A model generated the notes under the pieces. The model worked only from the letters and a program-made list of their open reading frames with translations. It had not been told where the DNA came from and made no database searches. Made by a program: the position numbers and the translations under genes. From Christensenellaceae bacterium (GTDB lineage Bacteria > Bacillota > Clostridia > Christensenellales > Borkfalkiaceae), in the NCBI GenBank assembly GCA_045536405.1, contig JAZSNM010000025.1, forward strand, positions 23,664-87,663: a stretch of DNA of 64,000 nt, written 5' to 3'. Numbering within the stretch: the stretch's first letter is position 1; each line of letters opens with the position of its first letter. Below are positions 4,926 through 20,546 of the stretch, piece after piece.

Positions 4926-5329
4926 ATTAGCCCCCTTAAATTAGTTATATCTTTACGTATATAAATAAACCATAGCCACGTTTTATTGCAAAATTAAAAA
5001 AATTTTTAAAAAATAAAAAAACGTAGGCACGTTATATTTATAAGTATGTGCAAGAGTTATAATTTTTAACGCTTTTAATATTTAATAAACACCCTTTATT
5101 ATTATGCGTTCTAGTCATAATATTTTAACACCAAAAATTATAATTGTCAAATATTTACAATTTTAGACAAGCAACGTTTAATTTATTTTAAAATTTAAAA
5201 TACAAAAAACAGAAATTAAAACACAAACGATTAAATAAAAAGTTTTTTAAAATATTTTTATAAAACCCCTTAAATTTGATTGATATTTTATAAAGTATGT
5301 GCTAAAATAACTATGCTAAAATTTCAAAC

Positions 5330-5416
5330 GCGGACATGGCGGAATTGGCAGACGCATAAGACTAAGGATCTTATGAGGGTTACTTCGTGCAGGTTCAAGT
5401 CCTGTTGTCCGCACCA
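5330..5416 (+). tRNA. tRNA-Leu, anticodon read as AAG, class II (long variable arm), CCA encoded
   Basis: Hand fold: acceptor GCGGACA/TGTCCGC, 3-bp D stem GCG/CGC, anticodon stem TAAGA/TCTTA with loop CTAAGGA, long variable arm, T stem GCAGG/CCTGT with loop TTCAAGT, then ACCA. Confidence 0.9.
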
Positions 5417-5419
5417 AAA
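5392..5419 (+). repeat. attL core (3' part of tRNA-Leu)
   Basis: GGTTCAAGTCCTGTTGTCCGCACCAAAA is identical to 18949-18976. Confidence 0.9.
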
Positions 5420-5420
5420 T

Positions 5421-5463
5421 AGGTCGTTTTACACTAAAAAGGTGTTAAAAACGACCTTTTTTT
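5421..5463 (+). terminator. Intrinsic terminator directly after tRNA-Leu (supplied by the integrated element)
   Basis: AGGTCGTTTT (5421-5430) pairs with AAAACGACCT (5447-5456). A T-run follows at 5457-5463. Confidence 0.65.
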
Positions 5464-5523
5464 GTGCTTTTTTAACACAATTTATGCGTTTTTTAATGCA
5501 ATTTTAATGCTTTTAGCTAATTA

Positions 5524-5545
5524 TTGGGGAAAAACTTGGGGAAAA
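5524..5545 (+). repeat. Two tandem TGGGGAAAA motifs (candidate integrase arm-type sites, int-proximal)
   Basis: The sequence is TTGGGGAAAAACTTGGGGAAAA. The same motif pair is present in the same orientation at 18883-18905. Confidence 0.5.
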
Positions 5546-5551
5546 GATTTC

Positions 5552-6781
5552 TCAATAATTCAGTTTTAATGCTAATTTTTGCTGATATTCCATTGAAAAA
5601 TGCGTGTAAACTAATGACGTTGTATTGCCTGCAAACGTGTGGCCAGTCCATAAACACACAATTTCATTTTCAATACCACACTCACGGCACCGTGTAGTAA
5701 AAGTATGACGTAGTTCGTGAGTATGGTGCGTTGGAAGAATTGTTTTTAATTTTTTGCCACTTTTCGTTACGCACTTTAAAAAAGGAAATTCGTTTTCCGG
5801 ATTTAAAGATTTTAACAATTCTTTTAGTTTAGGAAATATCGGCACTATTCTATCGGCGCCGTTTACTGTATCTTTAACTTTTGTAGTTCTAATTTTAACA
5901 GTGTTTTGTTCCCAGTTAATATCAGATAGCCTAAACTTAGCGCACTCAGACATTCTTGCTCCGCTATACAGCATAAAAAGAATCGCTTGTTCGTAGTGGT
6001 CATCTTTAATTTTTTCGACTAATAATTGCTCTTCCTTTATAGTTAAGGCTGAGCCTTTTTTTCTATAATGCTTTGGAATAGAAACGCCTTGCATTATATC
6101 TGATTTTACAATTCCTAAACTTAAGGCAATTTTAAACATACCGTTTAAATAACACTTAACTTCTTCAGCAGTTCTGCCTTTCCCCTGGCTTAATAAATTC
6201 GTTAAAAGTTCCTGAATTACTAACGGTGTTACGTCTAAAATTTGCAAACTTCCTATTTTTTGAATAACGTTCACTTTCACAACGTTTTTTAAATTCCTAT
6301 AGGAATTTTCTTTTAGTTCAAATTTACGGTATTTTTCTAAATACAGTTCACACGTTTCGGCAACCGTTTTACCTTTTTTTACAATTTTACCTTTTTTGTA
6401 TAAAGAGTTAATCTCTTTAAGAAAAATGCGAAACTTTGATTGAGCAATCTCAAGCGTTGTTCCGCAAAAACTTTTGTCATAGCCAAATTTACGAAATCTA
6501 ATTTCGATACTACCATTTGGCTTAATTCTTTTTTTACCATCTTTAAGTGAAAACATTTCATAATCTCCTTTTGTTGTTGGAAATTTTAATTTGTCTTCTC
6601 CCGTATTTCCAGTATTGCCTGCTGCATCATAAGATGCAGAAGGGGTTTCATTGCTTGAAAATGGTTGTTCTTTCGATAGTTCACCGTAAAGTGCGCCACT
6701 AAAACAAGCAAAGGCTTTAAGAGTTTCCCTAAGGGCTAACTCTATTTTGTTTAATGATTCCATAAAAAATTTCTTTTGCAT
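5552..6781 (-). CDS. int: Tyrosine-type site-specific integrase
   Basis: The C-terminal catalytic region contains ...SGARMSE..., HTHELRHTFTTR and ...LVYTHF (R..HxxR..Y pattern). The start is set at the ATG at 6779-6781 (MQKKFF), which is preceded by GGAGGTG. The ORF track extends it to 6802. Confidence 0.85.
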   Translation of the reverse strand: MQKKFFMESLNKIELALRETLKAFACFSGALYGELSKEQPFSSNETPSASYDAAGNTGNTGEDKLKFPTTKGDYEMFSLKDGKKRIKPNGSIEIRFRKFGYDKSFCGTTLEIAQSKFRIFLKEINSLYKKGKIVKKGKTVAETCELYLEKYRKFELKENSYRNLKNVVKVNVIQKIGSLQILDVTPLVIQELLTNLLSQGKGRTAEEVKCYLNGMFKIALSLGIVKSDIMQGVSIPKHYRKKGSALTIKEEQLLVEKIKDDHYEQAILFMLYSGARMSECAKFRLSDINWEQNTVKIRTTKVKDTVNGADRIVPIFPKLKELLKSLNPENEFPFLKCVTKSGKKLKTILPTHHTHELRHTFTTRCRECGIENEIVCLWTGHTFAGNTTSLVYTHFSMEYQQKLALKLNY

Positions 6782-6881
6782 AATTGCACCTCCAACGTGC
6801 AATTATACTAAAAATTATTACTTATAACTTAATAGTGTTTTTACTAAAATTCGTGTGAGAATTTTAGTACGTAAAACATTA

Positions 6882-7124
6882 TTATTTGTTGATTTTATTT
6901 CGTTGCATATTCAATCTTTGTTTTTCAACTTCTAATCTTTCTCTTTCGATTTTAACCATCTTTTTTAATGAGTTTTTAATTGACCAAACAAAAAATGGTA
7001 ATAAGATAATGGCTAAAGTTCTTAAAATGTCAATTAAAGCAACTCCACCAGCAGCGGCAAAAATGCCGGCTAACGCACCATCAATAGATTCACTATTTTC
7101 AGCAAGTAAGTTAAATAAATTCAT
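6882..7124 (-). CDS. Small two-TM membrane protein with charged coiled C-terminus
   Basis: 80-aa ORF co-oriented with int and the repressor. It has two hydrophobic segments followed by ERERLEVEKQRL. Function is unknown. Confidence 0.45.
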   Translation of the reverse strand: MNLFNLLAENSESIDGALAGIFAAAGGVALIDILRTLAIILLPFFVWSIKNSLKKMVKIERERLEVEKQRLNMQRNKINK

Positions 7125-7181
7125 AATACACCTCTTTAATAATTTTTATTTTTTAAATATCTTGAAATACGATATTTTTAA

Positions 7182-7514
7182 TCAATGAGCGAGAGCATAA
7201 ATAAAAGTTTGGGCTTTAATTTTATTTATTTCGTCAAGTAAACGGTATTCACTTAAAAGTTTTGCTTCATCTTCTTTAAGTTGAAGTTCGGCGCCACTTT
7301 TAACAATGCCAAAGTCATCTTCACGACCTAACAAGTAGTCTATTGTGCAGTCTAATATTTCGGCGAGTTTATACAAATTAGTTAAGTCTGGTTCGTTTTG
7401 GCCATTAAGCCAACGGCTAATTGTTTGTTGTGTTGTACTCATTTTGCTTGCTATATATTGTTGAGTTAAACCTTTTTCTATCATTAAATTTCTAAAATTA
7501 ATTGCAAATTTCAT
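7182..7514 (-). CDS. XRE/CI-like HTH repressor
   Basis: The N-terminal HTH reads GLTQQYIASKMSTTQQTISRWLNG. It is divergent from the rightward gene block. Confidence 0.8.
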   Translation of the reverse strand: MKFAINFRNLMIEKGLTQQYIASKMSTTQQTISRWLNGQNEPDLTNLYKLAEILDCTIDYLLGREDDFGIVKSGAELQLKEDEAKLLSEYRLLDEINKIKAQTFIYALAH

Positions 7515-7539
7515 ATTTTTTCTCCTTTTTACAAAATTT

Positions 7540-7617
7540 TACACGAAAATTGTGTATTTTTTATTGACAACACGTTTAACGTGTGTTATTTTTAATATAC
7601 AGCACACATAAAGTGTG
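7540..7617. promoter_or_regulatory. Divergent promoter region with three ACAC..GTGT inverted repeats (candidate operators)
   Basis: The three inverted repeats are TACACgaaaattGTGTA (7540-7556), ACACGtttaaCGTGT (7570-7584) and CACACataaaGTGTG (7603-7617). A TTGACA lies at 7565-7570. Confidence 0.55.
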
Positions 7618-7727
7618 TATTTCCCTGTAATTGCAATTATCAACTAAATTTACTTAAAGAATCGGACCAAAGGCAATAAAAACAGGGTAATGCTTTTGGT
7701 CCGTATTCATTTAAGGGGAACAATAAA

Positions 7728-8027
7728 ATGGAAGATAAAGAAAAGCAAATTGAAGAAAAACTTATGGAATTGCGACTTGATAAGCAAGAACTTATGAACG
7801 AAATAAGCGAGAAAAACAATAAGATTGCATTACTTGAAGAAACGATTGAGTGCATAAAGTTTAATGTTGATTTTACACGCAAGGAAACGGCAAATAAGTT
7901 TTATGATAAAGTAATGAGTTTTATTGGTTCAAATCAAAAGTTTTGGATAGTTGATGATGAACCTATAACTGTTATTGTCGTTGATAAATTATTTGATTTT
8001 ATGATAAAAACAAAAAAACAATTTTAA
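7728..8027 (+). CDS. Hypothetical coiled-coil protein (first rightward gene)
   Basis: 99-aa ORF with RBS AAGGGGA upstream. It is chosen over the antisense ORF 7640..7882, which has a low-complexity composition. Confidence 0.5.
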   Translation: MEDKEKQIEEKLMELRLDKQELMNEISEKNNKIALLEETIECIKFNVDFTRKETANKFYDKVMSFIGSNQKFWIVDDEPITVIVVDKLFDFMIKTKKQF

Positions 8028-8081
8028 TAAGTATTTATTTTCCAGTCGGCTGGAAAAATTACAATAAAAGAGAGGTTAAAA

Positions 8082-8279
8082 ATGTTAACTGAAAAAGAAA
8101 TTTTAATTGATTTAGAAAATACGTTAGAGAACTATAAAAAAACTTTAAAAGGAAATAACTACTATGAAACGTTATCAACTTTATTAAACTTTTCAGATGG
8201 TTATCTTTCTAACGAAAGTTTTAGCAATACGGTTAATAAAATTATGGCGATTGCTAGAAAATGGCATAAAGAGAATTAA
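8082..8279 (+). CDS. Hypothetical small protein
   Basis: 65-aa ORF with RBS AGAGAGG upstream. Confidence 0.45.
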   Translation: MLTEKEILIDLENTLENYKKTLKGNNYYETLSTLLNFSDGYLSNESFSNTVNKIMAIARKWHKEN

Positions 8280-8289
8280 ATATTTACGC

Positions 8290-8570
8290 TTTGGTATTGA
8301 ACGTTAACATAAATACAAGCGTTTAATAAACAACAAGTGCACTTGTTGGTCGGTGGGTAGAAGAGCCATAGTGGTAACGTTCACTTAAAAGGGGTTTGAC
8401 TGTCGGGAAAAGGCACCGAAACGTTACGTTAAAAGCAATAGCAGGGAACGTTGGCAACCAGGAAATAGGCTGGCGATAGGAAGGAAAGTTAACAATCGGT
8501 GTAGAGATTGCCTTCCTTAGACTGATTAAAACAGCATTGTGCTGATTTAAAATAAAAACACGAGGAAGAA
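8290..8570 (+). other. ORF-free GC-enriched structured block (candidate ncRNA or replication/packaging origin)
   Basis: No ORF lies here. Line 8401-8460 counts 29/60 G+C against AT-rich flanks. Local stems include AGGAAGG/CCTTCCT and CAGCA/TGCTG. Confidence 0.35.
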
Positions 8571-8574
8571 AAAA

Positions 8575-9255
8575 ATGACATTACAACAATTAAACCGTTA
8601 CATAGATAATCAACTCTATGTAAAGCAAGATGCACACAATTTTGTGCAAAGAGTAAAACGTAGCATTGATAACATTGTTACTGAATTTTTAACAATAGGT
8701 AAAGAGTTAAAAAACGCACAAGAAAAAAAGTATTACGTTGAATTAGGCTATTCAACAATCGATGAATTGTCTACTGACCTATTCGGCATTAAAAAATCTA
8801 CTTGCTATAACTTAATAAATCTATTTGAGCGTTGCACTGATGGGGAAAGTGTTTTGCCTATGTATAAAGGCTACACGCAGACTCAACTTGTAGAACTTGT
8901 TTCGGTTAAAGAAATGCCGGGAGAATTTTTAAAAATAACAACGCCTGAAGACAGCGCTAAAAAAATTAGAAAAGCAAAAAAGATATGGGCTGAAAGGCAA
9001 GATGAAATATTGTCTTCAGAAAATAAAAGGGTAGATAATTTAATAAGTAAATTTTCCACTCGACTGGAAAATAACAACTTAGAAACAACTGAAAAAAACG
9101 ATATTTCAGCAAAATTACGTATCTTAGAAGTCGTTAAACAATTTATGCAAGAAAATAACTGTGTTTGCTTTGTTGCGCCAAAGAGCAAAAAATCAACACG
9201 AAAAAATACAAAATTTATACAATTATTACAAAACTTTATCGAGAAGATTGAGTAA
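8575..9255 (+). CDS. Putative DNA-binding protein (HTH-like segment), function unknown
   Basis: 226 aa. The segment YVELGYSTIDELSTDLFGIKKSTCYNLINLFE resembles the phage DUF3102/ParB-type HTH context, from memory. Confidence 0.45.
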   Translation: MTLQQLNRYIDNQLYVKQDAHNFVQRVKRSIDNIVTEFLTIGKELKNAQEKKYYVELGYSTIDELSTDLFGIKKSTCYNLINLFERCTDGESVLPMYKGYTQTQLVELVSVKEMPGEFLKITTPEDSAKKIRKAKKIWAERQDEILSSENKRVDNLISKFSTRLENNNLETTEKNDISAKLRILEVVKQFMQENNCVCFVAPKSKKSTRKNTKFIQLLQNFIEKIE

Positions 9256-9410
9256 TTTTTTCACCACCTTTAATAAAAGTCTTGTTTAAGTGAGCATCAA
9301 GGATAAAAAAACTCACTGCCAACCCATTTAAATGGGTATTTCTTCCGTGTTTTGGGTTATTCTTCTTAACTTGAAGATAACCCTTACACAAAAAAAAGGA
9401 AAGGTGAATT

Positions 9411-9638
9411 ATGAAAAAAATTATAACAGTCAGCGATTTAGTAGACTACTTTAAGCCTGAACGTATTAAAGTTAGACTTAATAAAAACTGCAATTATCTT
9501 ACTTATTGGAATAAAAAAGAATTGCCTTTATGGCTTACGTTTTTGAATTTTGAAAACTATTACTTATGTAAAATTCAAAAAGCATTAGCTATCTATATCA
9601 CTTTAGGGGTTAACAACTATGGACAAGACTATTATTAA
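9411..9638 (+). CDS. Hypothetical protein
   Basis: 75-aa ORF with RBS GGAAAGGTG upstream. Confidence 0.45.
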   Translation: MKKIITVSDLVDYFKPERIKVRLNKNCNYLTYWNKKELPLWLTFLNFENYYLCKIQKALAIYITLGVNNYGQDYY

Positions 9639-9903
9639 AGTTGCTATAAAAAGACCGGCACAACCCTTAGAAGTTTGCAAAACGTTAAACAACGTAGATA
9701 ATTTTTGTAATATTTTACAGGCTTTAAGTTTTGTTGAGCAATATTGTATTTTTGGTAACGTAATTGTTTTTTACAACAACGAAGTGCCGATAACTAAGAG
9801 AATCTATATTTTTACCTCGAGTTCGCCTGTTGGAGAGCCTACAAACATTACTGATGGAGACATTGAAAAAGTTAACGCTTATTGTGAGTGTATCAGGGGG
9901 TAA
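9619..9903 (+). CDS. Hypothetical protein
   Basis: 94-aa ORF overlapping the previous one by 20 nt. Confidence 0.4.
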   Translation: MDKTIIKVAIKRPAQPLEVCKTLNNVDNFCNILQALSFVEQYCIFGNVIVFYNNEVPITKRIYIFTSSSPVGEPTNITDGDIEKVNAYCECIRG

Positions 9904-9907
9904 TTAT

Positions 9908-10234
9908 ATGTTTAAAAAGGTTAACAAATTATGGATTAACACATTATCAAGTCTATGTGAATTTCGTGAGTGTGATGACGGTAGTTTGCAAATTTTTTAT
10001 TATAACCGTGAAGAGACCGAAGTTCAACTTACGTTAAATAAATACGGTAAATTAGATTATTTAATTAGTCCAAACATACTAGAGAAGAAAATTCAAATGG
10101 TTATTACTATAAGAAGAACTTCAGAGCATTACTATCAAATAATAGCGTTAACTAATAAAAGTTCGCAAATATATACGGCAAAAGGTTATGAAGGTATAAA
10201 TAGAACTCTTAACAATATTTATTACAACTATTAG
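9908..10234 (+). CDS. Hypothetical protein
   Basis: The start is moved to the ATG at 9908 (MFKKVN), which is preceded by AGGGGG. The track start at 9830 would overlap the previous ORF. Confidence 0.45.
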   Translation: MFKKVNKLWINTLSSLCEFRECDDGSLQIFYYNREETEVQLTLNKYGKLDYLISPNILEKKIQMVITIRRTSEHYYQIIALTNKSSQIYTAKGYEGINRTLNNIYYNY

Positions 10235-10266
10235 TTTATTACTGCTTTTTAAGGAGGCTTTAAAAT

Positions 10267-11484
10267 ATGAAAAAAATTGTATCATTATTTTTAGTAATAA
10301 TACTTATTATTGCTGGCTATTTTGCTTACACCTATTGTTCTAAAAACTGGGACAAGTGGTTTAACAGCAAAAACGATGAAATAGTTCAGCCGGGAACTGA
10401 CACGCCGGAAACTGACACGCCAGGAACACCGGACACGCCGGAAACTGATGCGCCGGAAATTTTTATTAAAGAAAACGTTATTGAAAGTTTTTTAACGCCG
10501 GAAACCGTTGCGTGTGCTTATTACTACAACACTCAAACGGAATATAACGCTGAAACAGGCGAAGGTAACGTTATTTACAAAAAAGACCTTTTTGGCCAAT
10601 ATCTAGATGCTAATAATAACGTGGTTAATGAAGATGGTTACATAATAGACAATGAAGGCAAAGTAACTACTGTAAAATCTTCAAGAGTTGTTGAACGTTA
10701 CGTTAACGTTAACTCAAAATACACTCAAAATCCTTCTGCGCAATGGCATAGTAACGTGACGGATAACAATAATGAAACTCGTAAAGGCGTTATATCTTGT
10801 CAAGCAATCGATACATACTTTAATAATTTCTACATAAGAAGTAGTATTAGAACGCAAAAATTTTACAAGAAAGGACCATTAAATGTTGTTGACGACCCAT
10901 CATGGGATTTCATAAGCGTGTGGTTAATGATTGATGGGCCTGAGGGGGAAACAACGACAATATATAGGAATATGACGTATTACCCTGAACAAGTTCCAAA
11001 TAATACTTGGTATGAATTGAAAATAACCAAACAACACTATGCAAATCATCCATATAAGGAAGGGGAAGCAAATTATTCTATTTACCCTTACTATGATTTC
11101 TCTTATGATAGAGACACAAATCCAATGCCTTTAATATCTCTTGGCAATGCGCCAGTTAATAAAGACGTTACTATATATTTTGACCAAATTTCGTATGAAA
11201 AAGAGTTAAATATTAACGTAGATAACGATACTACAAACGGTACATGCACTATTACTGCAGATATTCCTGGCATTGAAGATTATAAAATTTCGTATGAAGT
11301 TCAAGATATGTTAGGCAATACGCTCTACACTTACAATTATTTTAACGTGACTGAAAGTGCAGATTATAAAGTTATAGTAACTTGCGATTACACTTACACC
11401 TACATAAATAATGAAGGTAAAACTGCTGTAGCGAGTAATACAATAACAAAAAGTAAAGTTTTTACTTTGACTAAAGATGAATAA
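10267..11484 (+). CDS. N-terminally membrane-anchored protein with TDTPE-repeat linker
   Basis: 405 aa. The N-terminal TM is IVSLFLVIILIIAGYFAY. It is followed by tandem TDTPETDTPGTPDTPETDAPE (15-nt DNA repeats around 10391-10455). Confidence 0.6.
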   Translation: MKKIVSLFLVIILIIAGYFAYTYCSKNWDKWFNSKNDEIVQPGTDTPETDTPGTPDTPETDAPEIFIKENVIESFLTPETVACAYYYNTQTEYNAETGEGNVIYKKDLFGQYLDANNNVVNEDGYIIDNEGKVTTVKSSRVVERYVNVNSKYTQNPSAQWHSNVTDNNNETRKGVISCQAIDTYFNNFYIRSSIRTQKFYKKGPLNVVDDPSWDFISVWLMIDGPEGETTTIYRNMTYYPEQVPNNTWYELKITKQHYANHPYKEGEANYSIYPYYDFSYDRDTNPMPLISLGNAPVNKDVTIYFDQISYEKELNINVDNDTTNGTCTITADIPGIEDYKISYEVQDMLGNTLYTYNYFNVTESADYKVIVTCDYTYTYINNEGKTAVASNTITKSKVFTLTKDE

Positions 11485-11495
11485 GAGGTGATATT

Positions 11496-11945
11496 ATGGA
11501 TTATAAAAAAATTTTAGGTTTAGTTTTAGTTGTAGTTTTAATAGTAGGTGTAACGCTTGGAATAGTATTTGGCGTTAAAGGTTGCAATAATAACACTTCC
11601 GGTGAAATAGCAACTCAATCAAGTGTTTCGTTTGATGACACTCAATCTACTTCTAATGCTTATATAAGAGCCTGGGCTGTTAGCAAAGATGAATTAACTA
11701 AAATAACATATCAAATTGATACGTTAGATGAAGTTAGTTTTTCAACTAAATTAAAAGGCGCAGTTGATGAAGACTGGAAATATTACGATAAAGATTTTAA
11801 AAAATTAAAATATATTGACTCTGGAGATAAACTAATAGATATTTCTAATTTAAATGAAGGCAAGCACACTATATCTATCTATATATATAATGAAGATGAT
11901 GAGTGTGAGTGTATTTACGAAAGCATTTTTAGAGTTAAAAAATAG
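11496..11945 (+). CDS. N-terminally membrane-anchored small protein
   Basis: 149 aa with TM ILGLVLVVVLIVGVTLGIVFGV and RBS AGAGGTG. Confidence 0.55.
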   Translation: MDYKKILGLVLVVVLIVGVTLGIVFGVKGCNNNTSGEIATQSSVSFDDTQSTSNAYIRAWAVSKDELTKITYQIDTLDEVSFSTKLKGAVDEDWKYYDKDFKKLKYIDSGDKLIDISNLNEGKHTISIYIYNEDDECECIYESIFRVKK

Positions 11946-11952
11946 GTAGATT

Positions 11953-14900
11953 ATGAATAATAAGATAATAACCTTTAAAAATAAATTGATATTTATATTG
12001 ACAACAATAGCCCTACTTTGTTTAGGGCTTTTTAGCATTTCGATAAACGTCAATACCGTAAACGGCGCAACAACTCTACCAAGCGCAAGCGGAGACTGGT
12101 GCGTCTCGAACGGCATTAGTTTTGATAAAGATGATAGGTTTCGACTAGAAAGTGTTGAGGTTAATGTAGATCAATATCGCACTGCTGGCTTTATAGATTG
12201 TCTTGTATATCTAGATGAAGATATTCAATTTTCTATCTATTCTGAGTTGGGAGAATTAGACCCCCTACGTACCATTACAGTTGTCACCACTGATATAGCT
12301 TATTATTACAACTTTAAAGTAGATGATATTTATTTAGCTGGTAAAGATGGTCTCGAAGAGGATTTACTTTTTTATTCTGATGCTTACATCGAGAAAGAAC
12401 CTAGTAATGCGTATTATGATAGATTTATGTTTTACAATGGAGGGAATTTAGATGGTTCCAACTATGCACAAATTGAATACATTCCTTATAATTCACAAAA
12501 TTATTACATATTCTCACTGCTAGTTTTTACAGGTCCTTGTATACCTCAAGGAACAATAGATACTCTATATTGCAAAATCGCCGGCAAAACTGACGTAAAA
12601 ACAATAAATATAGATAGAGAAATTAATAATATTTTAACAACGTCTACTGATAGAGACAAATTGACTACTGCTCAAAAAATTAAAGGCGTTTATACTAATG
12701 CCTCAACGGTTCCTGTTACAATCAAGTATAAAACTATTAAAGAAGGTGCTTTCGAAGTGACCGATGAGACGGAAGTAGTTGAGGTCGACCCGCTTTATAT
12801 ATATAATGAAAATTATATTGTTGAGCAAGTTAAAGCAACTCTCGGATTTTCAAATTTTAATGAGGAATTTGACTGTGTATATACTAAAAACATTATTGAA
12901 ACAGGACTTACAAACACTTTAGACAAAAAAATAAGACAAGAAGTTAATATCGATGACCCTTATTCGTATATGGTTATAGATAGTGACGGCGCTGGTATTG
13001 AGGGCGCTACATTAACGGTAAATTATAATAAATTTCAGTACAAAGATTTAAACGTTCGAATAATGACTAATAGCACTGACCCGGAAGTGCTTCAAAATTT
13101 TGTAGCGCATTATTACACAACAAAAGTAACAGCTTCAGACGAAGAATTCACCTTGACTTTTAATTATGCGGAAATTCAAGAGCAATTTAACACAACTTTA
13201 AACTGGTTATTTAACATAAGGGAGTATATGAGTACGGATGCAGGTAAAAACTGCTTACAGGTTAAAGGTGAAAGTGATAGCATTAAAGTTAACGTGTATG
13301 AAGATAAGTTTACGGTAACGTTTAACGGCTCGGATGAAGACAAGCTTAAAAATCTATACATAAGTTTAGTTTTACCCATAGTGGAAGATGAAAAAGTTGA
13401 CGTTAGAATAATATACAAATATATAACTAGCAATTCTGACTTTAGTTTAAATATTGAAGATAGAGTAATAGAAGATAATGATATTTGGTATACCGACTCT
13501 CTTGCTTATATTAACTTACAAACAATTATGAGTCAGTATGGGTCAACGATAACACAAGGTTGTAATCCAGAAGTTTTAAACGGTAATAAAGTTTATGAGC
13601 CGACCGGTGTTATATTATTAACTGAAGACAAAATTGAAGGCGAAAGAAAAGTATACACTTATAAAATAACGTACGATATCGAGTCTATATTTTTAGTTAC
13701 AACAACGTTTCAAAACAATGAAGTTTTAGAAAAAAGATACGTAACGTTAAGCGAAACTACTAATATTTATTCAGGTGCTTATTTTGTAGATGCAAACGCA
13801 ATACCTAAAGAATATCGTGTAAAAACAGTTAATATTCCTCAATCATTAGACGGTATTAGATACGTTAACACTAAAATGCAAGAAGGCACTAAAGGTTTTT
13901 ACGGCGAATTATATTACACTCTTGCCGTTTCAAAAAATTCCGGCGTAGTTATTCCGGTAGAGATAGTTTTAATTGATACCTGGCATTTGACTATTAACTA
14001 TATGAGAGAGTACTGGTATGAAAAGAACGGCGCTTTAACACGTTCACCGTTTGCTATAAAAAGCAAATTTGAAGGTGAAGTTAAAATTAAAGATTATGAA
14101 GCGGAATCACCTCATTATTTAACTAAAGAAGATTATAAAAAAATATTAGGTTTAGATTACTTAACGATTTGCGATAAAGTGGACGTTATGACAATTCAAA
14201 CTAATGGTGCTTATGGCGTTCACGAAGTTTGGTTTGACTACACGCAAACAAACGTTAAGTGTATGAATTATGACGGTGAAAATCCTCAAAACCCGCAAAA
14301 AGGAAGTTTTGAAGTCAAAGTTCCTTTAACTAGTTATGCTGAATGGTGCAATTCGTTCGGCGAAAACTGGTCAATACTCTATTTGAACAAGCCAGATAAT
14401 ATTTATTTTAAATATACTAATTCAATAGATAAAAATAAATCAGAGGCTGAAAATCGTGCGCTTTTATATGGTTTCTTTACGGTTGCAGTTTTCGAACAAC
14501 AAATATCTGATTTAAACTATTTATTCCAGCAAAATACTTCAAACGGTTGTGTTACTGCATTTACCTCTCTTAACGTTCAAGGCAGTAAACTCTATGAATT
14601 TTTTGGCAAAAAAGCTGAAGGTAGCGCCTTAGGTTCAGTCTTAAGCCGTGTAGGTATGGCATTATGCGAATTTATTAATCCAGAGAATAAAATGTACTAC
14701 TCATACTTTTTATATTTAGATTGCACGTCTGATTTACCGTATTTAGCTTTAAACGGCGCTGATAGTTATGATGATGAAGATAGCGCTATTGTAAATAAAG
14801 GTGAAGATATTAAAGATGAGTTAGAAGATACATTTGGCTCTGGCTGGGAAAAGTTTAAAAAGTGGTTTGGCGAAGAAGTTTGGGATGCCTGGCTTAAATA

Positions 14901-14979
14901 TTTTGTTTTTATTGCATTAGGATTGATATTATTGTCGTTAGTTCTAAAAATAGTAATTAAGATATTTTCTATTAAATAA
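11953..14979 (+). CDS. Large secreted protein with C-terminal TM anchor (candidate spike/adsorption protein)
   Basis: 1008 aa. The N-terminal signal-like segment is LIFILTTIALLCLGLFSISINVNTVNGA. The C-terminal TM is YFVFIALGLILLSLVLKIVIKIF. I recognise no enzymatic motif. Confidence 0.6.
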   Translation: MNNKIITFKNKLIFILTTIALLCLGLFSISINVNTVNGATTLPSASGDWCVSNGISFDKDDRFRLESVEVNVDQYRTAGFIDCLVYLDEDIQFSIYSELGELDPLRTITVVTTDIAYYYNFKVDDIYLAGKDGLEEDLLFYSDAYIEKEPSNAYYDRFMFYNGGNLDGSNYAQIEYIPYNSQNYYIFSLLVFTGPCIPQGTIDTLYCKIAGKTDVKTINIDREINNILTTSTDRDKLTTAQKIKGVYTNASTVPVTIKYKTIKEGAFEVTDETEVVEVDPLYIYNENYIVEQVKATLGFSNFNEEFDCVYTKNIIETGLTNTLDKKIRQEVNIDDPYSYMVIDSDGAGIEGATLTVNYNKFQYKDLNVRIMTNSTDPEVLQNFVAHYYTTKVTASDEEFTLTFNYAEIQEQFNTTLNWLFNIREYMSTDAGKNCLQVKGESDSIKVNVYEDKFTVTFNGSDEDKLKNLYISLVLPIVEDEKVDVRIIYKYITSNSDFSLNIEDRVIEDNDIWYTDSLAYINLQTIMSQYGSTITQGCNPEVLNGNKVYEPTGVILLTEDKIEGERKVYTYKITYDIESIFLVTTTFQNNEVLEKRYVTLSETTNIYSGAYFVDANAIPKEYRVKTVNIPQSLDGIRYVNTKMQEGTKGFYGELYYTLAVSKNSGVVIPVEIVLIDTWHLTINYMREYWYEKNGALTRSPFAIKSKFEGEVKIKDYEAESPHYLTKEDYKKILGLDYLTICDKVDVMTIQTNGAYGVHEVWFDYTQTNVKCMNYDGENPQNPQKGSFEVKVPLTSYAEWCNSFGENWSILYLNKPDNIYFKYTNSIDKNKSEAENRALLYGFFTVAVFEQQISDLNYLFQQNTSNGCVTAFTSLNVQGSKLYEFFGKKAEGSALGSVLSRVGMALCEFINPENKMYYSYFLYLDCTSDLPYLALNGADSYDDEDSAIVNKGEDIKDELEDTFGSGWEKFKKWFGEEVWDAWLKYFVFIALGLILLSLVLKIVIKIFSIK

Positions 14980-14986
14980 TTAAAAT

Positions 14987-16834
14987 ATGAGTTTAAGTAA
15001 CATTTTAAATAAAGTTGAAAATAATAAAAAAGAAGTAAAGAATTCACCTTCGAATACAAGTGGTAAATTTGAGGGTGAAGGCTTTACTTTTGTTTTAAAA
15101 AAAACTTTAAATCATAATACTTCTAAGGCTGAAAGTATACAAAGAATTAAAGCGGAAAACGAGGCTATCAAAAATTACCTTCAAGAAAAGGAACTAGTCG
15201 AAAAAAATTTAAAACGTACTGAGACTAATAATTTTTTAAAATTTCGTACAGGTCGAAGGTATATCAATAAATTTGGACCTAACAAAAATCTCCCGGTAAT
15301 AATTAAAGATTATTTTGCGCCGGAATTTGAATTAAATCAAAAGCAACGTGAATATGTAGAAAATACTATTGATAATGATGATATTCGACTTGAAACTGAA
15401 GACGTCATTGTATCAAATAACCCTCTAGGCTTAAACAAATATTTGTTTTTCAATGCTGTAGATAGATGCGCTAACGGGTTAATATACTACAGCGTACCGT
15501 TTTTGTTTAGTTTTTTAGCAATAATTCTTAATTTTAATTTAAACAATTTTTTCGAAAATTTAATAACGGCAATTATTTTATTGTCTTTTGTTTTAATGGT
15601 TAGAAAAAATTTTAAAAGCGAAGAAAAAGCAATTATTAAATTGCTATATCTTATTCTATCCTTATTTTTAGTTGTTTTTATAGCATATATAGTCTACGAA
15701 GTATCTCCAACGACTTACGACAAAATAGATTTAACGTTTACTATTAAACTATTCTTCTTTGGCTTCGGCGTTTATTATTTCGGTAAATTTTACGTGTTAT
15801 TTATTAAAATGTATCGTCAAGATTGCAATCCAGATATCGGTAACGTCGTTTCGTGTAATTATGGCGCTCCAGGAAGTGGAAAGACTTCAAACGCAGTTCA
15901 AGAGGCGTACGTTTTAGCTTTAATTAAATGGCGCCAACTTCAAGCTGACTTTATGGACGTTCACTCGAGGGAAAAAGAAATTTTAAAAAGGAATAATCCT
16001 AAAGAGCTTTTAGATAGATACGAAATAATAGAATCTTATAAATTTTATATTATGCGCCCTTGTATTCCTTGCTTGTGGTCAAATTTAGAAATTTACGACT
16101 CTAAAGGTAGGCGTTCTCACGAGGTCGAAATTGACCATATACGAGGACTTAAGAGATTGCCTTTATATTCTGTTGTATTATTCGATGAATTAGGCGCTGT
16201 TTTAAAGTCACAGTTAGGTTTTGAAAAAACTGAAAACTATGATTTTAGTGACATGTTTAGATTAGGTAGACAGTTTATAAAATGGACGGTAATTTGTTGC
16301 GAGCAAGACCCTTCAAATATCTATATCGATTGTAGGCGTGTAATGGGCAAGAATAGAGGGTTTTTGGGTCAAGAATGGCACAATAAACCAGTCTTTTTAT
16401 TAGGTATTTATAAATTTTTAAATTTATTAAGAACTGAAACGTGCGATAAAAAAGTTAAAAGAAAAACTGCTTATGCTAAATTTTTAAATATACTTGGTAA
16501 TTTTGTATATTCGATAGGTTTTCGAATTCAATATTTAACAAGTATGGGGAATACACAAACAGGTATTACCGGCAAGCAAATTTCAGTTAATGGTGAAGTC
16601 TTTTCAAAACTAACTTATAGAATAACGCCAGCAAATATGATTGTAGACTATGATGATAGAGAGTATCGCTGGCAATACCCTTCAAGATTTGATAAACGCA
16701 TTAATGCTGAACTTTGTGGCGTTGGCCGTTTAGGTGAACGAGTTGTTGGATTTAAAAGACAATTTGTATCGAGTACTACTTTATTAGATGAAAAACGCTA
16801 TGCGCAAGACTACTACATAAAAAAAATTGCGTAA
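14987..16834 (+). CDS. Membrane-embedded P-loop NTPase, Zot/pI-like (alternative: FtsK-like translocase)
   Basis: 615 aa. About 4-5 TM segments lie between roughly aa 160 and 285. Walker A is NYGAPGSGKTS and Walker B is VVLFDELG. Confidence 0.6.
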   Translation: MSLSNILNKVENNKKEVKNSPSNTSGKFEGEGFTFVLKKTLNHNTSKAESIQRIKAENEAIKNYLQEKELVEKNLKRTETNNFLKFRTGRRYINKFGPNKNLPVIIKDYFAPEFELNQKQREYVENTIDNDDIRLETEDVIVSNNPLGLNKYLFFNAVDRCANGLIYYSVPFLFSFLAIILNFNLNNFFENLITAIILLSFVLMVRKNFKSEEKAIIKLLYLILSLFLVVFIAYIVYEVSPTTYDKIDLTFTIKLFFFGFGVYYFGKFYVLFIKMYRQDCNPDIGNVVSCNYGAPGSGKTSNAVQEAYVLALIKWRQLQADFMDVHSREKEILKRNNPKELLDRYEIIESYKFYIMRPCIPCLWSNLEIYDSKGRRSHEVEIDHIRGLKRLPLYSVVLFDELGAVLKSQLGFEKTENYDFSDMFRLGRQFIKWTVICCEQDPSNIYIDCRRVMGKNRGFLGQEWHNKPVFLLGIYKFLNLLRTETCDKKVKRKTAYAKFLNILGNFVYSIGFRIQYLTSMGNTQTGITGKQISVNGEVFSKLTYRITPANMIVDYDDREYRWQYPSRFDKRINAELCGVGRLGERVVGFKRQFVSSTTLLDEKRYAQDYYIKKIA

Positions 16835-16844
16835 AGAAATTAAC

Positions 16845-16888
16845 GTGCAAATTTATATATAAGTGCGTTTCTATATATCAATTTGCAC
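16845..16888 (+). terminator. AT-rich inverted repeat after the ATPase gene (terminator or origin-like hairpin)
   Basis: GTGCAAATTTATATATA pairs with TATATATCAATTTGCAC. Confidence 0.4.
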
Positions 16889-17033
16889 GGTAATTTTAGC
16901 AATTTTTTTATGATAATATAAACACAACTACGCTAATAAAAGTAACTATTATAATATAAACAAAATTCCATTTTAATTTATAAAAAATTTACGGTACGCA
17001 GTATAGGAAATTTTTTATTCGGGCTTTCAATTT

Positions 17034-17444
17034 ATGATAAATAATTTAGATATTTCAATTTTTGATAAACGTTTTAAGCAAATTAGACCGGCAAAATTGC
17101 TGTTAGATATGTTAGTTTATTTATACTGTCTAAAAGACAGTCCTTTTAAGTATGCTGAAAACACGTTAAAGATTAGTGAGTTAAATTTAATCGAGGCAAT
17201 GAGTGAAGTCGGCGTTAATGAGCTAACAAAGAGTCAACTTCAATCTAAGGAACGTAGGCTCCGCTGGTGGAGAACTCGCCTCGAGCTCGAAGGCGCTATT
17301 AAGTACAAGCAAAGTAACGTTAGTCTATATATGATTAATCCGTTATACTACTTTAACGGAACGGATGCAGAGTTTAAAAAGGCTAAAAATAGGTGGAATT
17401 CATTTGATTGTAAGCATACACCTTACTATTTTAATGAAATTTAA
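17034..17444 (+). CDS. RepL-like winged-helix protein (tentative)
   Basis: 136 aa. The pattern LLLDMLVYLY...LYMINPLYYFNGTD resembles the Firmicute RepL pattern I recall. There is no clear RBS at the listed start. Confidence 0.35.
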   Translation: MINNLDISIFDKRFKQIRPAKLLLDMLVYLYCLKDSPFKYAENTLKISELNLIEAMSEVGVNELTKSQLQSKERRLRWWRTRLELEGAIKYKQSNVSLYMINPLYYFNGTDAEFKKAKNRWNSFDCKHTPYYFNEI

Positions 17445-17457
17445 CAAGGAGCGATTT

Positions 17458-17799
17458 ATGGGAAGAAGAAAAAGATACATAAAAGGTAAAGTTTATTTTA
17501 CTACTGATAAATTACTAGTTGGTGGAAAAGGAAAGACTCGTAGAGTTGTATCAATGGGAAATGATAAAAGTAATATGGAAGTAAGACGTATATTTTCTTT
17601 ACATGATAAAAACGGTAATATAAGAGAACGTCTTATTCCTATTGAAAAATATAAAGATATACCTAAACCAAGTGGAGTTGAAAAGAAAACTTTTCGCAAA
17701 ACTGTTAATGGAAAACCTATACAAGAAAAGTATTTAGGTAAAACAAATACAAGGCTTAATAAATGGGATATGTCAAAAATAATTAACAATAAAAAATGA
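17458..17799 (+). CDS. Small highly basic protein (possible DNA-binding)
   Basis: The start is set at the ATG at 17458 (MGRRKRYIKGK) after AAGGAG. About 113 aa, very Lys/Arg-rich. Confidence 0.5.
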   Translation: MGRRKRYIKGKVYFTTDKLLVGGKGKTRRVVSMGNDKSNMEVRRIFSLHDKNGNIRERLIPIEKYKDIPKPSGVEKKTFRKTVNGKPIQEKYLGKTNTRLNKWDMSKIINNKK

Positions 17800-17928
17800 G
17801 TGGTAATAGTAAATACTATTACCACACTTGAAATAATTTATTTAATTATTTCGGTCGGAAATACCCGACAAATAAATTATATTAAATTTTTAAAAAATTG
17901 TCAACTAAAAATTATAAGGTAAATTATT

Positions 17929-18171
17929 ATGGTATACTATCATTTTCAATTGCCGGACAAATATATATCAACTTATGGACTGAACGTAGGTCAAATTAAA
18001 ACTTTTGAAGGGCATAGAGATATTATAGGTGCATGTATCGAGCGCACGTCAATCAATAAATATAAGGTTGTGGTGTTGTATAAAAAGAATCAACTACTAC
18101 ATACACAGGCATTTAGCATGCGTGATGCTTTTAATATTATTAAAAATTGCTATATAAATACTAATATTTAA
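17929..18171 (+). CDS. Hypothetical protein
   Basis: 80-aa ORF followed by hairpins at 18181-18206 and 18210-18230. Confidence 0.45.
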   Translation: MVYYHFQLPDKYISTYGLNVGQIKTFEGHRDIIGACIERTSINKYKVVVLYKKNQLLHTQAFSMRDAFNIIKNCYINTNI

Positions 18172-18209
18172 AATTTAAACTCTCACAATGCGTTTTAGTG
18201 AGAGTATTT

Positions 18210-18230
18210 CACCGTACACGGTGATTTTTC
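18210..18230 (+). terminator. Intrinsic terminator
   Basis: TCACCG-taca-CGGTGA followed by TTTTT. Confidence 0.6.
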
Positions 18231-18239
18231 AAATACAAT

Positions 18240-18770
18240 TTAATAATACGATGCGGTCATTCTCCTTTTAACCTGGCATCGCTAAATAATCAGGTTTGTT
18301 GTGGTTGCCCGGCTAGTGAGGGAGACTTAAAATGTGGTGATAAGACGTAACAATGCAGTCCTTCTGATATTTCGGAAGTAAAAGAACCAACGTGGAAGGC
18401 GTTGTAAAAGAAGTTTCAGGCGGTATATGGCTCGCCACCATGTACTATTGGTAGCCCGCTGAAAAATCGTTGTGCCAAGGGGACGGGGAATGGCACATTT
18501 TTTAAAAACGATTTAGTAGGAAAGGGCGCAGTCTGCCCTTTTGGCAACCTGCAAAGTTGATTTTTTCTATATGTGCTTTAAAAATATTAACTTTTCAATT
18601 ATTATTCTTAACGTTAAAGCAGTAGCAGTTCGGGTTGATATGTTCGTAAAGCACACTCACCTCTTGCGTACGCTTTATGAATATATCAATGCGAATTCTC
18701 ACATAAACAGCCTGCGCAGTCAGGCACAATTAAGGTGAAGTTTGCATTTTTTTATTCACCGATTTTTTTA
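18240..18770 (+). other. ORF-free GC-enriched nested-helix block of about 530 nt ending in a terminator (candidate large ncRNA or ssDNA origin)
   Basis: Line 18301-18360 counts 28/60 G+C, against 8/60 at 17881-17940. Nested stems include AATCGTT/AACGATT enclosing TGTGCCA/TGGCACA, AAGGGC/GCCCTT and CGATGC/GCATCG. The hairpin GGTGAA/TTCACC followed by a T-run lies at about 18734-18770. Confidence 0.4.
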
Positions 18771-18882
18771 TATAAACAGCGCAAACGTTGTTATAGTCTT
18801 TTTTTTATAAAGTTATTAACAATTTACTTAAAAAACGACTTAAAATACACTGCCACGTTTAAAAATGCTTAATATCAATATA

Positions 18883-18905
18883 CTGGGGAAATACTGGGGA
18901 AGTAA
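18883..18905 (+). repeat. Two tandem CTGGGGAA motifs (candidate arm-type sites, int-distal)
   Basis: ACTGGGGAAATACTGGGGAAGT matches the motif at 5524-5545. Confidence 0.5.
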
Positions 18906-18948
18906 TTAAAATTTTCCGATAAAATCTTAAATTTTGAGCCTTTTATAT

Positions 18949-18976
18949 GGTTCAAGTCCTGTTGTCCGCACCAAAA
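18949..18976 (+). repeat. attR core (duplicate of the tRNA-Leu 3' end)
   Basis: Identical to 5392-5419. The flanking bases differ (T at 18948 versus A at 5391). Confidence 0.9.
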
Positions 18977-18979
18977 AAA

Positions 18980-19007
18980 GAACTTTCTACGGAAAGTTCT
19001 TTTTTTT
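18980..19007 (+). terminator. Ancestral tRNA-Leu terminator displaced by the insertion
   Basis: GAACTTTC-tacg-GAAAGTTC followed by an 8-nt T-run. Confidence 0.7.
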
Positions 19008-19184
19008 ATCCATTGCGAGAGCAATGGCATATCATCACAATTTAGCGTGGTATATCATTTCAATTAGGCGTATATTATCACGCAACTTGCTTTCGTGCAT
19101 ATAATCAAAAGATATAAAAAATCTAATTATCATATTTATACTTTTTAATATATAACTATTTTAATCTAAAAACTAAAAAAACTA

Positions 19185-19213
19185 TTGCAATATTCTCCAA
19201 AAAGTAGTATACT
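19185..19213 (+). promoter_or_regulatory. Sigma-70-type promoter
   Basis: TTGCAA (19185-19190), a 17-nt spacer, then TATACT (19208-19213). Confidence 0.5.
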
Positions 19214-19219
19214 GATATT

Positions 19220-19419
19220 GCGAAACAAACCAAATATTTATTAAAACGAGTAGTTTTCTATATGGGATAACTATGTCTTTTAGTCTTTACTTTTGAATTT
19301 AGTGAAAGTGCAAATTCCCCTTAGTAAAGACTGATAGTTATTCCGTTTTAATTAGGTTTGTTTCGCGACAACGGAGTTTGCGTTTTCGGTGCGTGGCTTC
19401 GTTGTCGCGCACTTTTTTT
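19220..19419 (+). ncRNA. Long-hairpin leader/sRNA candidate with intrinsic terminator
   Basis: The outer stem GCGAAACAAACC (19220-19231) pairs with GGTTTGTTTCGC (19355-19366). The inner arms GGATAACTAT..GTCTTTAC pair with GTAAAGAC..ATAGTTATTCC. The terminator is GCGACAACG (19365-19373)/CGTTGTCGC (19400-19408) followed by a T-run. Confidence 0.4.
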
Positions 19420-19486
19420 ATTATCTTTATATTAAAATAACAAGTGAGCATACACAGAAAACCGAAATATTTTTTGGAGGTTTTAT

Positions 19487-20428: not shown

Positions 20429-20518
20429 TTTAATCAACTATAAAAAGTAGATTAAAATAAACCGTTTACGGTTTAAGACGTATTTAATTTTAATACGTAA
20501 AAAACGAATATTATATGG

Positions 20519-20546
20519 GGGCGAGAATTGAATTCTCGCCCTTTTT
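20519..20546 (+). terminator. Intrinsic terminator
   Basis: GGGCGAGAATT/AATTCTCGCCC followed by TTTTT. Confidence 0.7.

Follow-up and report, generated by a model that had tools for sequence, protein, structure and literature searches.

Actinomycete integrative and conjugative elements (AICEs) are small elements integrated in tRNA genes, each carrying an integrase, a gene for replication and one DNA-translocating ATPase associated with the membrane, and the Pleolipoviridae have small circular genomes, integrated or episomal, and vesicle virions with a C-anchored spike, small membrane proteins and a conserved P-loop NTPase. Acholeplasma phage L2, a member of the Plasmaviridae, whose enveloped and pleomorphic virions bud from wall-less Mollicutes, is temperate, has a genome of ~12 kb with 32% G+C and DnaA-box origins used by the host replisome, and inserts into tRNA genes by means of a tyrosine integrase; according to the ICTV profile, plasmaviruses share only the integrase with other viruses. 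For the filamentous phages, the combination of a Zot domain with an N-terminal membrane domain has been described as the pI protein found where hosts are Gram-positive or lack a wall (Roux et al. 2019, PMC6813254); the same study admits as inovirus pI a protein with one or two membrane domains at its N- or C-terminus, treats short coat genes (30-90 aa, single membrane domain) as the most informative feature for recognising an inovirus, and includes in its tables a 13,954-bp inovirus prediction from Lachnospiraceae. Further marks of an inovirus are a pI-like ATPase that is nearer to Zot than to other domains of the FtsK/HerA type, a rolling-circle initiator of the HUH, Rep_trans or Phage_CRI type, and a filamentous virion with circular single-stranded DNA. 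The present analysis concerns a 13.6-kb element integrated in a tRNA-Leu gene at positions 5392-18976 of a 64,000-nucleotide stretch of DNA from Christensenellaceae bacterium (GenBank assembly GCA_045536405.1, contig JAZSNM010000025.1, positions 23,664 to 87,663 of the forward strand; hereafter the window).

We give about an even chance to the reading that this element represents a new family of virus-like elements, temperate, capsid-less and assembled at the membrane, in gut Clostridia of the Christensenellaceae type. Its integrase, XRE repressor, Zot-like ATPase and RepL protein are modules of known kinds, and it is their combination, the core of large membrane proteins and the host lineage that are new. 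The literature, which we covered incompletely, yielded no earlier account of elements like these from Clostridia or Christensenellales.

Integration Site and Lysogeny Module

The only tRNA gene found by ARAGORN and Rfam in the window is tRNA-Leu(aag) at 5330..5416 on the plus strand (Rfam tRNA, 55.4 bits), and this is the integration target. The 28-mer GGTTCAAGTCCTGTTGTCCGCACCAAAA, made up of the last 25 bases of the tRNA plus three A's, is present in exact copies at 5392-5419, where as the attL core it rebuilds the 3′ end of the tRNA, and at 18949-18976, the attR core, with 13.56 kb of element between the att cores. Among the repeat families listed for 4800-19600 this pair is the only 100%-identical repeat of such length, and by our own estimate an exact 28-mer pair in 14 kb has a chance expectation of ~1e-9. 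Since a hairpin with a T-run, AAAGAACTTTCTACGGAAAGTTCTTTTTTTT (~18977-19007), abuts the right copy on its 3′ side, the tRNA-Leu gene's own terminator has been displaced 13.6 kb downstream. The G+C content is ~30-34% both within the element and in its flanks.

The lysogeny module occupies the left end of the element on the minus strand. It comprises a tyrosine integrase at 5552..6802 (phrog_1, E 6.8e-48; Pfam Phage_integrase, 1.6e-11, and Phage_int_SAM_3), whose true start is probably a few codons downstream of the first start codon used here; an 80-aa single-pass membrane protein at 6882..7124; and an XRE/CI-like repressor at 7182..7514 (Pfam HTH_3, 1.6e-16; phrog_8/phrog_3). The sequence of the 80-aa protein is not conserved, but in other members the equivalent position holds a small membrane gene; it may take part in superinfection exclusion. 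The 213-bp gap between the repressor gene and the first plus-strand gene holds three operator-like palindromes of the form ACAC-N7-GTGT (7541-7555, 7570-7584 and 7604-7618), lying between the divergent repressor and early genes, and a promoter-like TTGACA at 7564 falls within this region. The whole window contains four such palindromes against 0.44 expected, three of them at 7541-7618; the fourth, at 5431-5445, lies 12 bp inside attL in a hairpin downstream of the integrase gene, and may be due to chance or be a repressor site near the attachment site.

A sequence-only reading of this DNA had proposed a tyrosine integrase, a CI-like repressor with divergent operators, direct repeats that restore the 3′ end of tRNA-Leu and a stranded tRNA terminator to the right of the element, and each of these stands: the repeats are exact at both coordinates, the hairpin and T-run lie where the displaced terminator was placed, phrog_1 and Pfam Phage_integrase identify the integrase, and HTH_3 together with the three palindromes bears out the switch. 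The empty tRNA-Leu site or circular attP junction that it had suggested looking for did not turn up; a degenerate attB/attP/attL/attR pattern for this exact element gave 0 matches in the JGI metagenome contigs, a single collection that holds few relatives of this host.

A Family of Mobile Elements

Homologues of the element's ATPase (99 at 37-49% identity, almost all unannotated) come mostly from gut data of humans and other animals. Those in species-representative genomes belong to metagenome-assembled genomes (MAGs) named Christensenellaceae or Clostridia bacterium from human, sheep or goat gut, and for the relatives on metagenome contigs all the named samples are human gut. L006 is the same element in another Christensenellaceae MAG, with 95-97% nucleotide identity over the shared parts and the same attR flank, and the ratios of nonsynonymous to synonymous substitution (dN/dS) of 0.06-0.12 between the two indicate genes under purifying selection.

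Six integrated relatives occupy five other kinds of tRNA gene, in each case with the 3′ end of the tRNA repeated 12.4-13.1 kb downstream: tRNA-Ser (L007, 26-bp repeat, 12,584 bp), tRNA-Gln (L009, 29-bp repeat, 13,130 bp, and L016, 46-bp repeat, 12,592 bp), tRNA-Met (L017, 49-bp repeat, 12,538 bp), tRNA-Leu(gag) (L025, 24-bp repeat, 13,022 bp) and tRNA-Glu (L026, 26-bp repeat, 12,399 bp). Another four relatives, of 11.5-14.2 kb, are circular metagenome contigs, called as such from an exact terminal overlap of assembler k-mer length: L001 (14,080 bp), L003 (13,768 bp) and L047 (11,550 bp), each with a 55-bp overlap, and L036 (14,377 bp) with one of 141 bp. L003 and L004 are one element recovered from two samples with different break points. 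The family, whose G+C content ranges from 31 to 52%, is mobile by site-specific integration, as shown at family level, and the finding of relatives in other tRNA genes and as free circles is not that of a syntenic block fixed in all relatives, which had been named as the outcome that would count against a mobile element.

The circular L047 has 51% G+C and no detectable integrase; it carries RepL (E 1.9e-5), the ATPase, membrane proteins and a GNAT acetyltransferase. The presence of RepL without a detectable integrase fits autonomous replication, and L047 looks like an episome-only lineage that carries a cargo gene. The MAG CAKQMM01 holds two members, L008 and L022, whose ATPases share 49% and 43% identity with the query, so more than one element can occur in the same genome bin. 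There is also a sister clade (L027-L031 and L053-L055) in MAGs of Lachnospiraceae, Eubacterium and other Clostridia, in which the ATPase has 400-430 aa and two N-terminal helices and the genes follow the same order: tRNA, integrase, XRE, several acidic membrane proteins in a row, ATPase.

No family member was found among the INPHARED phages (tblastn with the ATPase and the 1008-aa protein described below), in IMG/VR (scan with the ATPase alignment A1; nor was the sister clade found there with the short-ATPase alignment A8) or among the 72,556 plasmids of PLSDB (tblastn with the ATPase). A comparison of family elements with host flanks for CRISPR-spacer-like 24-mer matches, in very little host DNA, gave none.

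A Conserved Core of Membrane Proteins and an ATPase

Beyond the integrase and XRE genes, the core conserved by BLAST consists of four genes in constant order, encoding a ~150-aa N-anchored protein, a ~1000-aa anchored protein, the ATPase and a ~130-aa winged-helix RepL-like protein. Because this ordered set is conserved throughout the family, it points to propagation machinery rather than cargo.

The core ATPase (615 aa; 14987..16834, plus strand) has about four N-terminal membrane helices followed by a P-loop domain. Its only Pfam match is a weak one to Zot (E 2.1e-4, 21.2 bits against a curated cutoff of 20.3); Zot is matched by 7 of 30 ATPase relatives (best 3e-5), which match no other Pfam family at E<=0.01, and PHROGs likewise gives a weak Zot-like match only. 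The Walker A residues G293-P295-G298-K299-T300 and the Walker B residues D400-E401 are invariant. In the AlphaFold2 model (predicted local distance difference test, pLDDT, 77.6) residues 1-110 are basic and of low confidence, and the model and hydropathy together place about four long helices over residues ~160-280, ahead of the P-loop domain and a C-terminal extension; the membrane region is thus N-terminal, with a 150-aa N-terminal extension, compared with two helices in the sister clade. The best fold match in the PDB is the Zot N-domain 2r2a (E 1.7e-3), with HerA, Vps4 and STIV B204 close behind, and in BFVD the model matches an unnamed protein (1e-10), an Inoviridae Zot (9e-7) and Acholeplasma phage L2 ORF3 (4e-6). 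The family profile found nothing significant among PDB sequences. On its Pfam match and modelled fold we class the protein as a predicted Zot/pI-like ATPase; its dN/dS against L006 is 0.12.

Upstream of the ATPase gene on the same strand are three genes for proteins with predicted membrane or signal segments. The first product (405 aa; 10267..11484) has an N-terminal membrane anchor, a Pro/Thr/Glu/Asp-rich linker (repeats D3/D4) and an acidic ectodomain; the sequence in this slot varies across the family, with an N-anchored protein of 340-470 aa usually there. The second (149 aa; 11496..11945), a core protein kept in 18 loci at 22-48% identity (alignment A7), consists of an N-terminal membrane helix and an ectodomain of ~120 aa that is taken to be beta-rich. 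The third and largest, also of the core (1008 aa; 11953..14979), starts with a signal peptide, continues as small alpha/beta domains in a chain and ends in a membrane anchor, and is split in two in some family members.

In a set of 1.84 billion proteins the large protein is represented by 158 clusters, all of them family-specific and none with an annotated relative; no relative was found in Pfam or among PDB sequences, a profile search of the PDB gave no significant match, and word-index searches with the 1008-aa alignment returned only 3 proteins, the identical set on repeat. The AlphaFold2 model (pLDDT 77.9; predicted template modelling score, pTM, 0.48), made with proteins from the exhaustive protein search, is a string of small alpha/beta domains. 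Its only matches, to repeat proteins of the MucBP, internalin and cell-wall-anchor types, are weak and of low TM, and no L2, inovirus or pleolipovirus protein is among the matches listed. We propose that the protein is an adhesin or spike.

The fourth core gene, directly downstream of the ATPase gene in all members, encodes the RepL-like winged-helix protein (136 aa; 17034..17444, plus strand; dN/dS 0.11 against L006). Pfam RepL is matched by 12 of 18 family members (best 2e-8), the window copy itself having no Pfam match, and the family profile has nothing significant among PDB sequences; from these family-level matches we propose a putative replication initiator. Between the ATPase and RepL-like genes lies an AT-rich inverted repeat (I11; 16837..16896) with 25-nt arms that are 92% complementary, kept in L006, which may be an origin, an operator or a terminator.

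Genes Looked For and Classes Rejected

Searches of the 16 open reading frames (ORFs) of the element with Pfam and PHROGs found no match to a terminase, portal, capsid, tail, relaxase, VirB4 or coupling protein, no lysin match and no holin match apart from noise, no HUH, Rep_trans or Phage_CRI replication protein (Rep), no single-stranded DNA (ssDNA)-binding protein, and no packaging-hijack genes (for example small terminase or capsid-size redirection). There was likewise no VirB6-like or cell-wall hydrolase match in the window element, and no FtsK/TraG-type Pfam domain in 30 ATPase relatives. ORFs of 28-95 aa with a membrane segment are absent from the structural strand of the window element, and altogether from L025 and L026; the sole window-element ORF of that size that combines a membrane segment with a ribosome-binding site belongs to the lysogeny strand, and by a crude hydropathy method nothing in this class is conserved across 10 complete members. 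Membrane-containing icosahedral phages of the PRD1/PM2 type have a double jelly-roll major capsid protein beside a packaging ATPase of the A32/B204 type; STIV B204 and A32-like ATPases are among the weaker fold matches here, no conserved soluble core protein of 250-400 aa was seen, and with two proteins modelled a capsid fold may still hide in a variable ORF.

A tailed prophage (Caudoviricetes) is rejected on the absence of terminase, portal, HK97-fold capsid and tail genes from the 16 ORFs. An integrative and conjugative element (ICE), AICE or mobilisable element is rejected for want of a relaxase, coupling protein, VirB4 or FtsK-like TraB, and a satellite of the phage-inducible chromosomal island (PICI) type because the defining genes are absent. 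Strict membership of the Inoviridae is not supported, there being no small coat genes and no rolling-circle Rep of known type, and neither is strict membership of the Plasmaviridae, no sequence homology to L2 having been found, there being no DnaA boxes, and the host not being Acholeplasma. L2 ORF1 (591 aa), considered as the counterpart of the ATPase, is unrelated and has no P-loop.

These results agree with what had been read from the letters alone in that no tailed-phage or conjugation gene set is present, in that the 405-, 149- and 1008-aa products are three envelope-type proteins with N-terminal membrane or signal segments, and in that a membrane-fused P-loop ATPase is encoded at 14987-16834, its identity now sharpened to Zot/pI-like; the RepL-like assignment holds at the level of the family. 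The choice that had been left between a non-tailed membrane-associated virus and a minimal transfer element has shifted: the virus gains support, and the AICE option loses it because there is no signal of FtsK/TraB, a type IV coupling protein, VirB4 or a relaxase. A very basic small protein had also been singled out, and it is present, with a net charge of +27, but as a family feature it falls away, having no homologue elsewhere.

Comparison with Described Systems

The element resembles L2 in its size, its low G+C content, its integration into a tRNA gene by its own tyrosine integrase and its lack of a capsid gene, and the family range of 11.5-14.2 kb is comparable to the ~12 kb of L2. In both, a block of large signal-peptide and membrane proteins is followed by a P-loop ATPase (ORF12-13-14-1-2-3 in L2), and the ATPase resembles L2 ORF3 in having a hydrophobic segment just before Walker A, as well as in the BFVD fold match at E 4e-6. 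However, BLAST clustering links the two only through the integrase and XRE, the ATPase here is twice as long and has about four membrane helices, L2 replicates from DnaA-box origins without RepL whereas the present element has RepL and no DnaA box, and the wall-less host of L2 contrasts with Christensenellaceae-type Clostridia. A search for the DnaA box TTATCCACA with one mismatch allowed gave a single near-match within the element, in a coding region (10919-10927), and a total for the window at chance level. As a separate observation, L2 (L032) has at 5015-5431 on the minus strand, next to attP, an unannotated 138-aa ORF that BLAST-clusters with the XRE repressors of the family; all the annotated L2 genes are on the opposite strand.

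Likeness to the filamentous phages lies in gene order and in the ATPase. In Propionibacterium phage B5 (Paulinoviridae) the order Orf6-Orf7-Orf8-Orf9 is colinear with the element (large anchored protein, membrane segment, ATPase, Rep), the "atypical pI" of monoderm inoviruses (Roux et al. 2019) is likewise a Zot/pI-like ATPase with an N-terminal membrane anchor, and inoviruses too have integrated and episomal members and no lysis genes. The differences are that the element has no small coat genes and no recognised rolling-circle Rep, that its ATPase has extra N- and C-terminal regions, and that B5 is 5.8 kb long with a structural gene of 485 aa, compared with 13.6 kb and 1008 aa here. With the Pleolipoviridae and with vesicle-transferred plasmids the element would share the logic of capsid-less membrane packaging, but their hosts are archaeal and the fold searches gave no specific match to a pleolipovirus protein. 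From AICEs it differs in having a Zot-like rather than an FtsK/TraB-like ATPase, a CI-type switch, a large anchored surface protein and a host that is not a mycelial actinomycete.

Proposed Cycle and Alternative Explanations

If the element is a virus of this kind, the following cycle can be envisioned. As can be read from the sequence, the XRE repressor of the lysogen is bound to the three palindromic operators and keeps the plus-strand operon silent. Upon derepression the tyrosine integrase would recombine the 28-bp attL and attR cores, the positions of which are exact, freeing a 13.56-kb circle and restoring the tRNA-Leu gene next to its own terminator. Replication of the circle would then be started by the RepL-like initiator, probably at the AT-rich inverted repeat, the structured non-coding block near the right end (18300..18560), or both. 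The 405-, 149- and 1008-aa proteins are predicted from their topology to reside in the cytoplasmic membrane, with the 1008-aa protein perhaps acting as adhesin or spike, and the membrane-held ATPase, with its cytoplasmic Zot/pI-type P-loop domain, would spend ATP to drive the element's DNA into, or across, an assembly in the membrane made up of these proteins. The particle would exit without lysis, as neither a lysin nor a holin was found. The core as a whole would be a membrane-located DNA export or assembly machine that makes a non-lytic extracellular vehicle. We weakly favour a membrane-bounded pleomorphic particle of the plasmavirus or pleolipovirus type over a classical filament, because the structural genes are few and large and there is no small coat-protein gene. 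The window element itself is intact and probably active.

Several observations weigh against a membrane-assembled virus. Christensenellaceae have a cell wall, we know of no enveloped budding phage from walled bacteria, and no peptidoglycan hydrolase that might aid exit or entry was detected in the element. The 1008-aa protein resembles the repeats of bacterial surface adhesins and not a known viral spike; every relative was recovered from a bulk metagenome or a MAG, and none was found in IMG/VR or INPHARED; and circular contigs are equally expected of a plasmid. The Zot match of the ATPase is weak at 21 bits, the PDB fold match reaches only 1.7e-3, and HerA, Vps4 and STIV B204 are near rivals. 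Finally, hhalign comparisons of the ATPase alignments A1 and A8 with the single sequence of L2 ORF3 (E 0.088 and 0.019, probability <3%) and with that of B5 Orf8 (pI) were not significant, comparisons that are uninformative because single-sequence templates are too weak.

The same genes could also belong to an integrative plasmid that is not viral and either passes between touching cells or does not spread: an adhesin-like 1008-aa protein would join cells while the membrane ATPase pumps DNA, much as in the TraB logic of AICEs, or else the membrane module would be a surface structure that benefits the host. The RepL-type initiator, the circular forms (one of them without a detectable integrase and with the GNAT acetyltransferase as cargo), the purely adhesin-type matches of the 1008-aa model, the ATPase layout, which with its N-terminal membrane helices resembles coupling proteins, and the lack of any member in viromes or viral databases all fit such a plasmid. 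We nevertheless judge it unlikely, though it is a rival to be taken seriously, given that the window element has no match to FtsK_SpoIIIE, TraG/TrwB, VirB4, a relaxase, a VirB6-like protein or a cell-wall hydrolase, that neither an FtsK-type domain in the 30 ATPase relatives nor a member among the PLSDB plasmids was found, that a repressor-operator switch coupled with tRNA integration is phage-like, and that the membrane module is the conserved core and not cargo. A filamentous ssDNA phage (Tubulavirales) of a Gram-positive-type host, in which the RepL-like protein would start rolling-circle replication, the ATPase would extrude a filament tipped by the 1008-aa protein, and the structured non-coding block would be the complementary-strand origin or a packaging signal, would account for Zot being the sole Pfam match, for the N-terminal membrane domain typical of monoderm pI and for an order colinear with B5 (adsorption protein, small membrane protein, pI, Rep), as well as for tRNA integration, a size within the predicted-inovirus range that includes the 13,954-bp Lachnospiraceae prediction, a strongly structured non-coding region and the lack of detected lysis genes. 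What makes it distinctly improbable to us is that no small coat gene was found on the structural strand, nor anything of the sort conserved across ten complete members, that neither a Rep of the HUH, Rep_trans or Phage_CRI type nor an ssDNA-binding protein was found, that no inovirus isolate examined comes near the element in the size of its structural genes, and that the family was not found in IMG/VR, which is assumed to hold the inovirus set of Roux et al.

A satellite or decaying remnant, immobile alone or dependent on a helper for its particles, is very improbable. The element is small, it has no capsid genes, and neither an empty site nor an attP junction was found for it in the JGI metagenome contigs, but that search covered one collection with few host relatives; meanwhile the two att repeats are identical, no core ORF is broken, dN/dS is 0.06-0.12, independent integrations and circles show this gene set again, and no packaging-hijack genes were seen. 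To return to a membrane-assembled virus, a bolder version of that reading would have the first plasmavirus-like enveloped, capsid-less viruses of walled gut Firmicutes, with the N-anchored Zot-like ATPase, whose fold is common to L2 ORF3 and to the pI of Gram-positive inoviruses, marking a common origin of Plasmaviridae and filamentous phages, a missing link between groups of viruses now regarded as unrelated. We hold this to be doubtful. The literature, as far as it was covered, contained no link between plasmavirus and inovirus ATPases.

Accessory Genes, Non-Coding Features and Surroundings

The plus-strand genes to the left of the membrane proteins form a variable early region (7728..10234) with six small ORFs (7728-8027, 8082-8279, 8575-9255, 9411-9638, 9619-9903 and 9830-10234, the last probably starting at 9908). 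They have no informative matches and most are common only to the window element and L026. The product of ORF 8575-9255 (226 aa) matches phrog_15077, and a longer relative of it has a weak, sub-threshold match to DUF3102.

To the right of the core, the very basic protein is encoded at 17365..17799 on the plus strand, with a probable start at 17458, and is an accessory. Its gene lies in a swapped module, in that window 17467-17911 is replaced in L006 by a different segment of 1.6 kb (L006 1874-3475). An 80-aa protein at 17929..18171 on the plus strand is common to the window element, L006 and L026 only, with a dN/dS of 0.06 against L006. On the minus strand at 17904-17876 there is a perfect match to the sigma-70 promoter consensus (TTGACA-17-TATAAT); behind it come a small hairpin and then a terminator at 17825-17800 that is a strong hairpin with a T-run; from this arrangement we predict a ~70-nt RNA of two stem-loops (minus strand, 17800-17904), antisense to the leader of the 80-aa gene, which would resemble by analogy the countertranscripts of plasmid copy control.

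A terminator-like hairpin at 18209-18224 would close the plus-strand operon, and from there to attR runs ~0.7 kb of non-coding DNA. Within it, the structured block at 18300..18560 has fold z-scores of -4.6 on the plus and -3.7 on the minus strand, and the wider interval 18171-18760 also folds unusually well. The block is present in the window, L006 and L026 only; its nucleotide identity to L026 12799-13005 is 77%, compared with only 42% identity for the neighbouring protein, and it shows one compensatory hairpin change (GTGCC...GGCAC to GTGCG...CGCAC). Its motif was absent from an IMG/VR scan and matched no Rfam family, and at a permissive threshold Rfam gave only sub-threshold noise over 16800-19100. 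The block could serve as an origin or as a packaging signal, or it could encode a small RNA. L006 carries an extra 0.5 kb just before attR (window 18846-18851, L006 4410-4938).

Outside the element, the host flank to the right of attR (19007-20595) has no counterpart in L006, with homology resuming at window 20595, and a 313-aa lipoprotein-like gene at 19487-20428 lies within it; the host region adjoining the integration site is variable. Farther along the window are a large serine recombinase (CcrB/XisF-like, E 2e-30) at 47836-49611 on the minus strand and, separate from it, a restriction endonuclease and adenine methyltransferase pair at 55953-60512, also on the minus strand, which may mark another mobile element or a defence island.

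Implications

Christensenellaceae-type Clostridia are prominent in the human gut, and their mobile elements are almost unknown. As the family was not found in IMG/VR, INPHARED or PLSDB, it is likely to have gone uncounted, as virus or as plasmid, in gut surveys that use those resources. With complete circular genomes and precise att sites now defined, either outcome can be tested directly. If the elements form particles, they would be a new type of non-tailed, non-lytic temperate virus in a major gut lineage and possibly the first relatives of the Plasmaviridae outside Acholeplasma; if they are not viruses, they would represent a new and minimal kind of DNA-transfer system with a pI-type ATPase at its centre.

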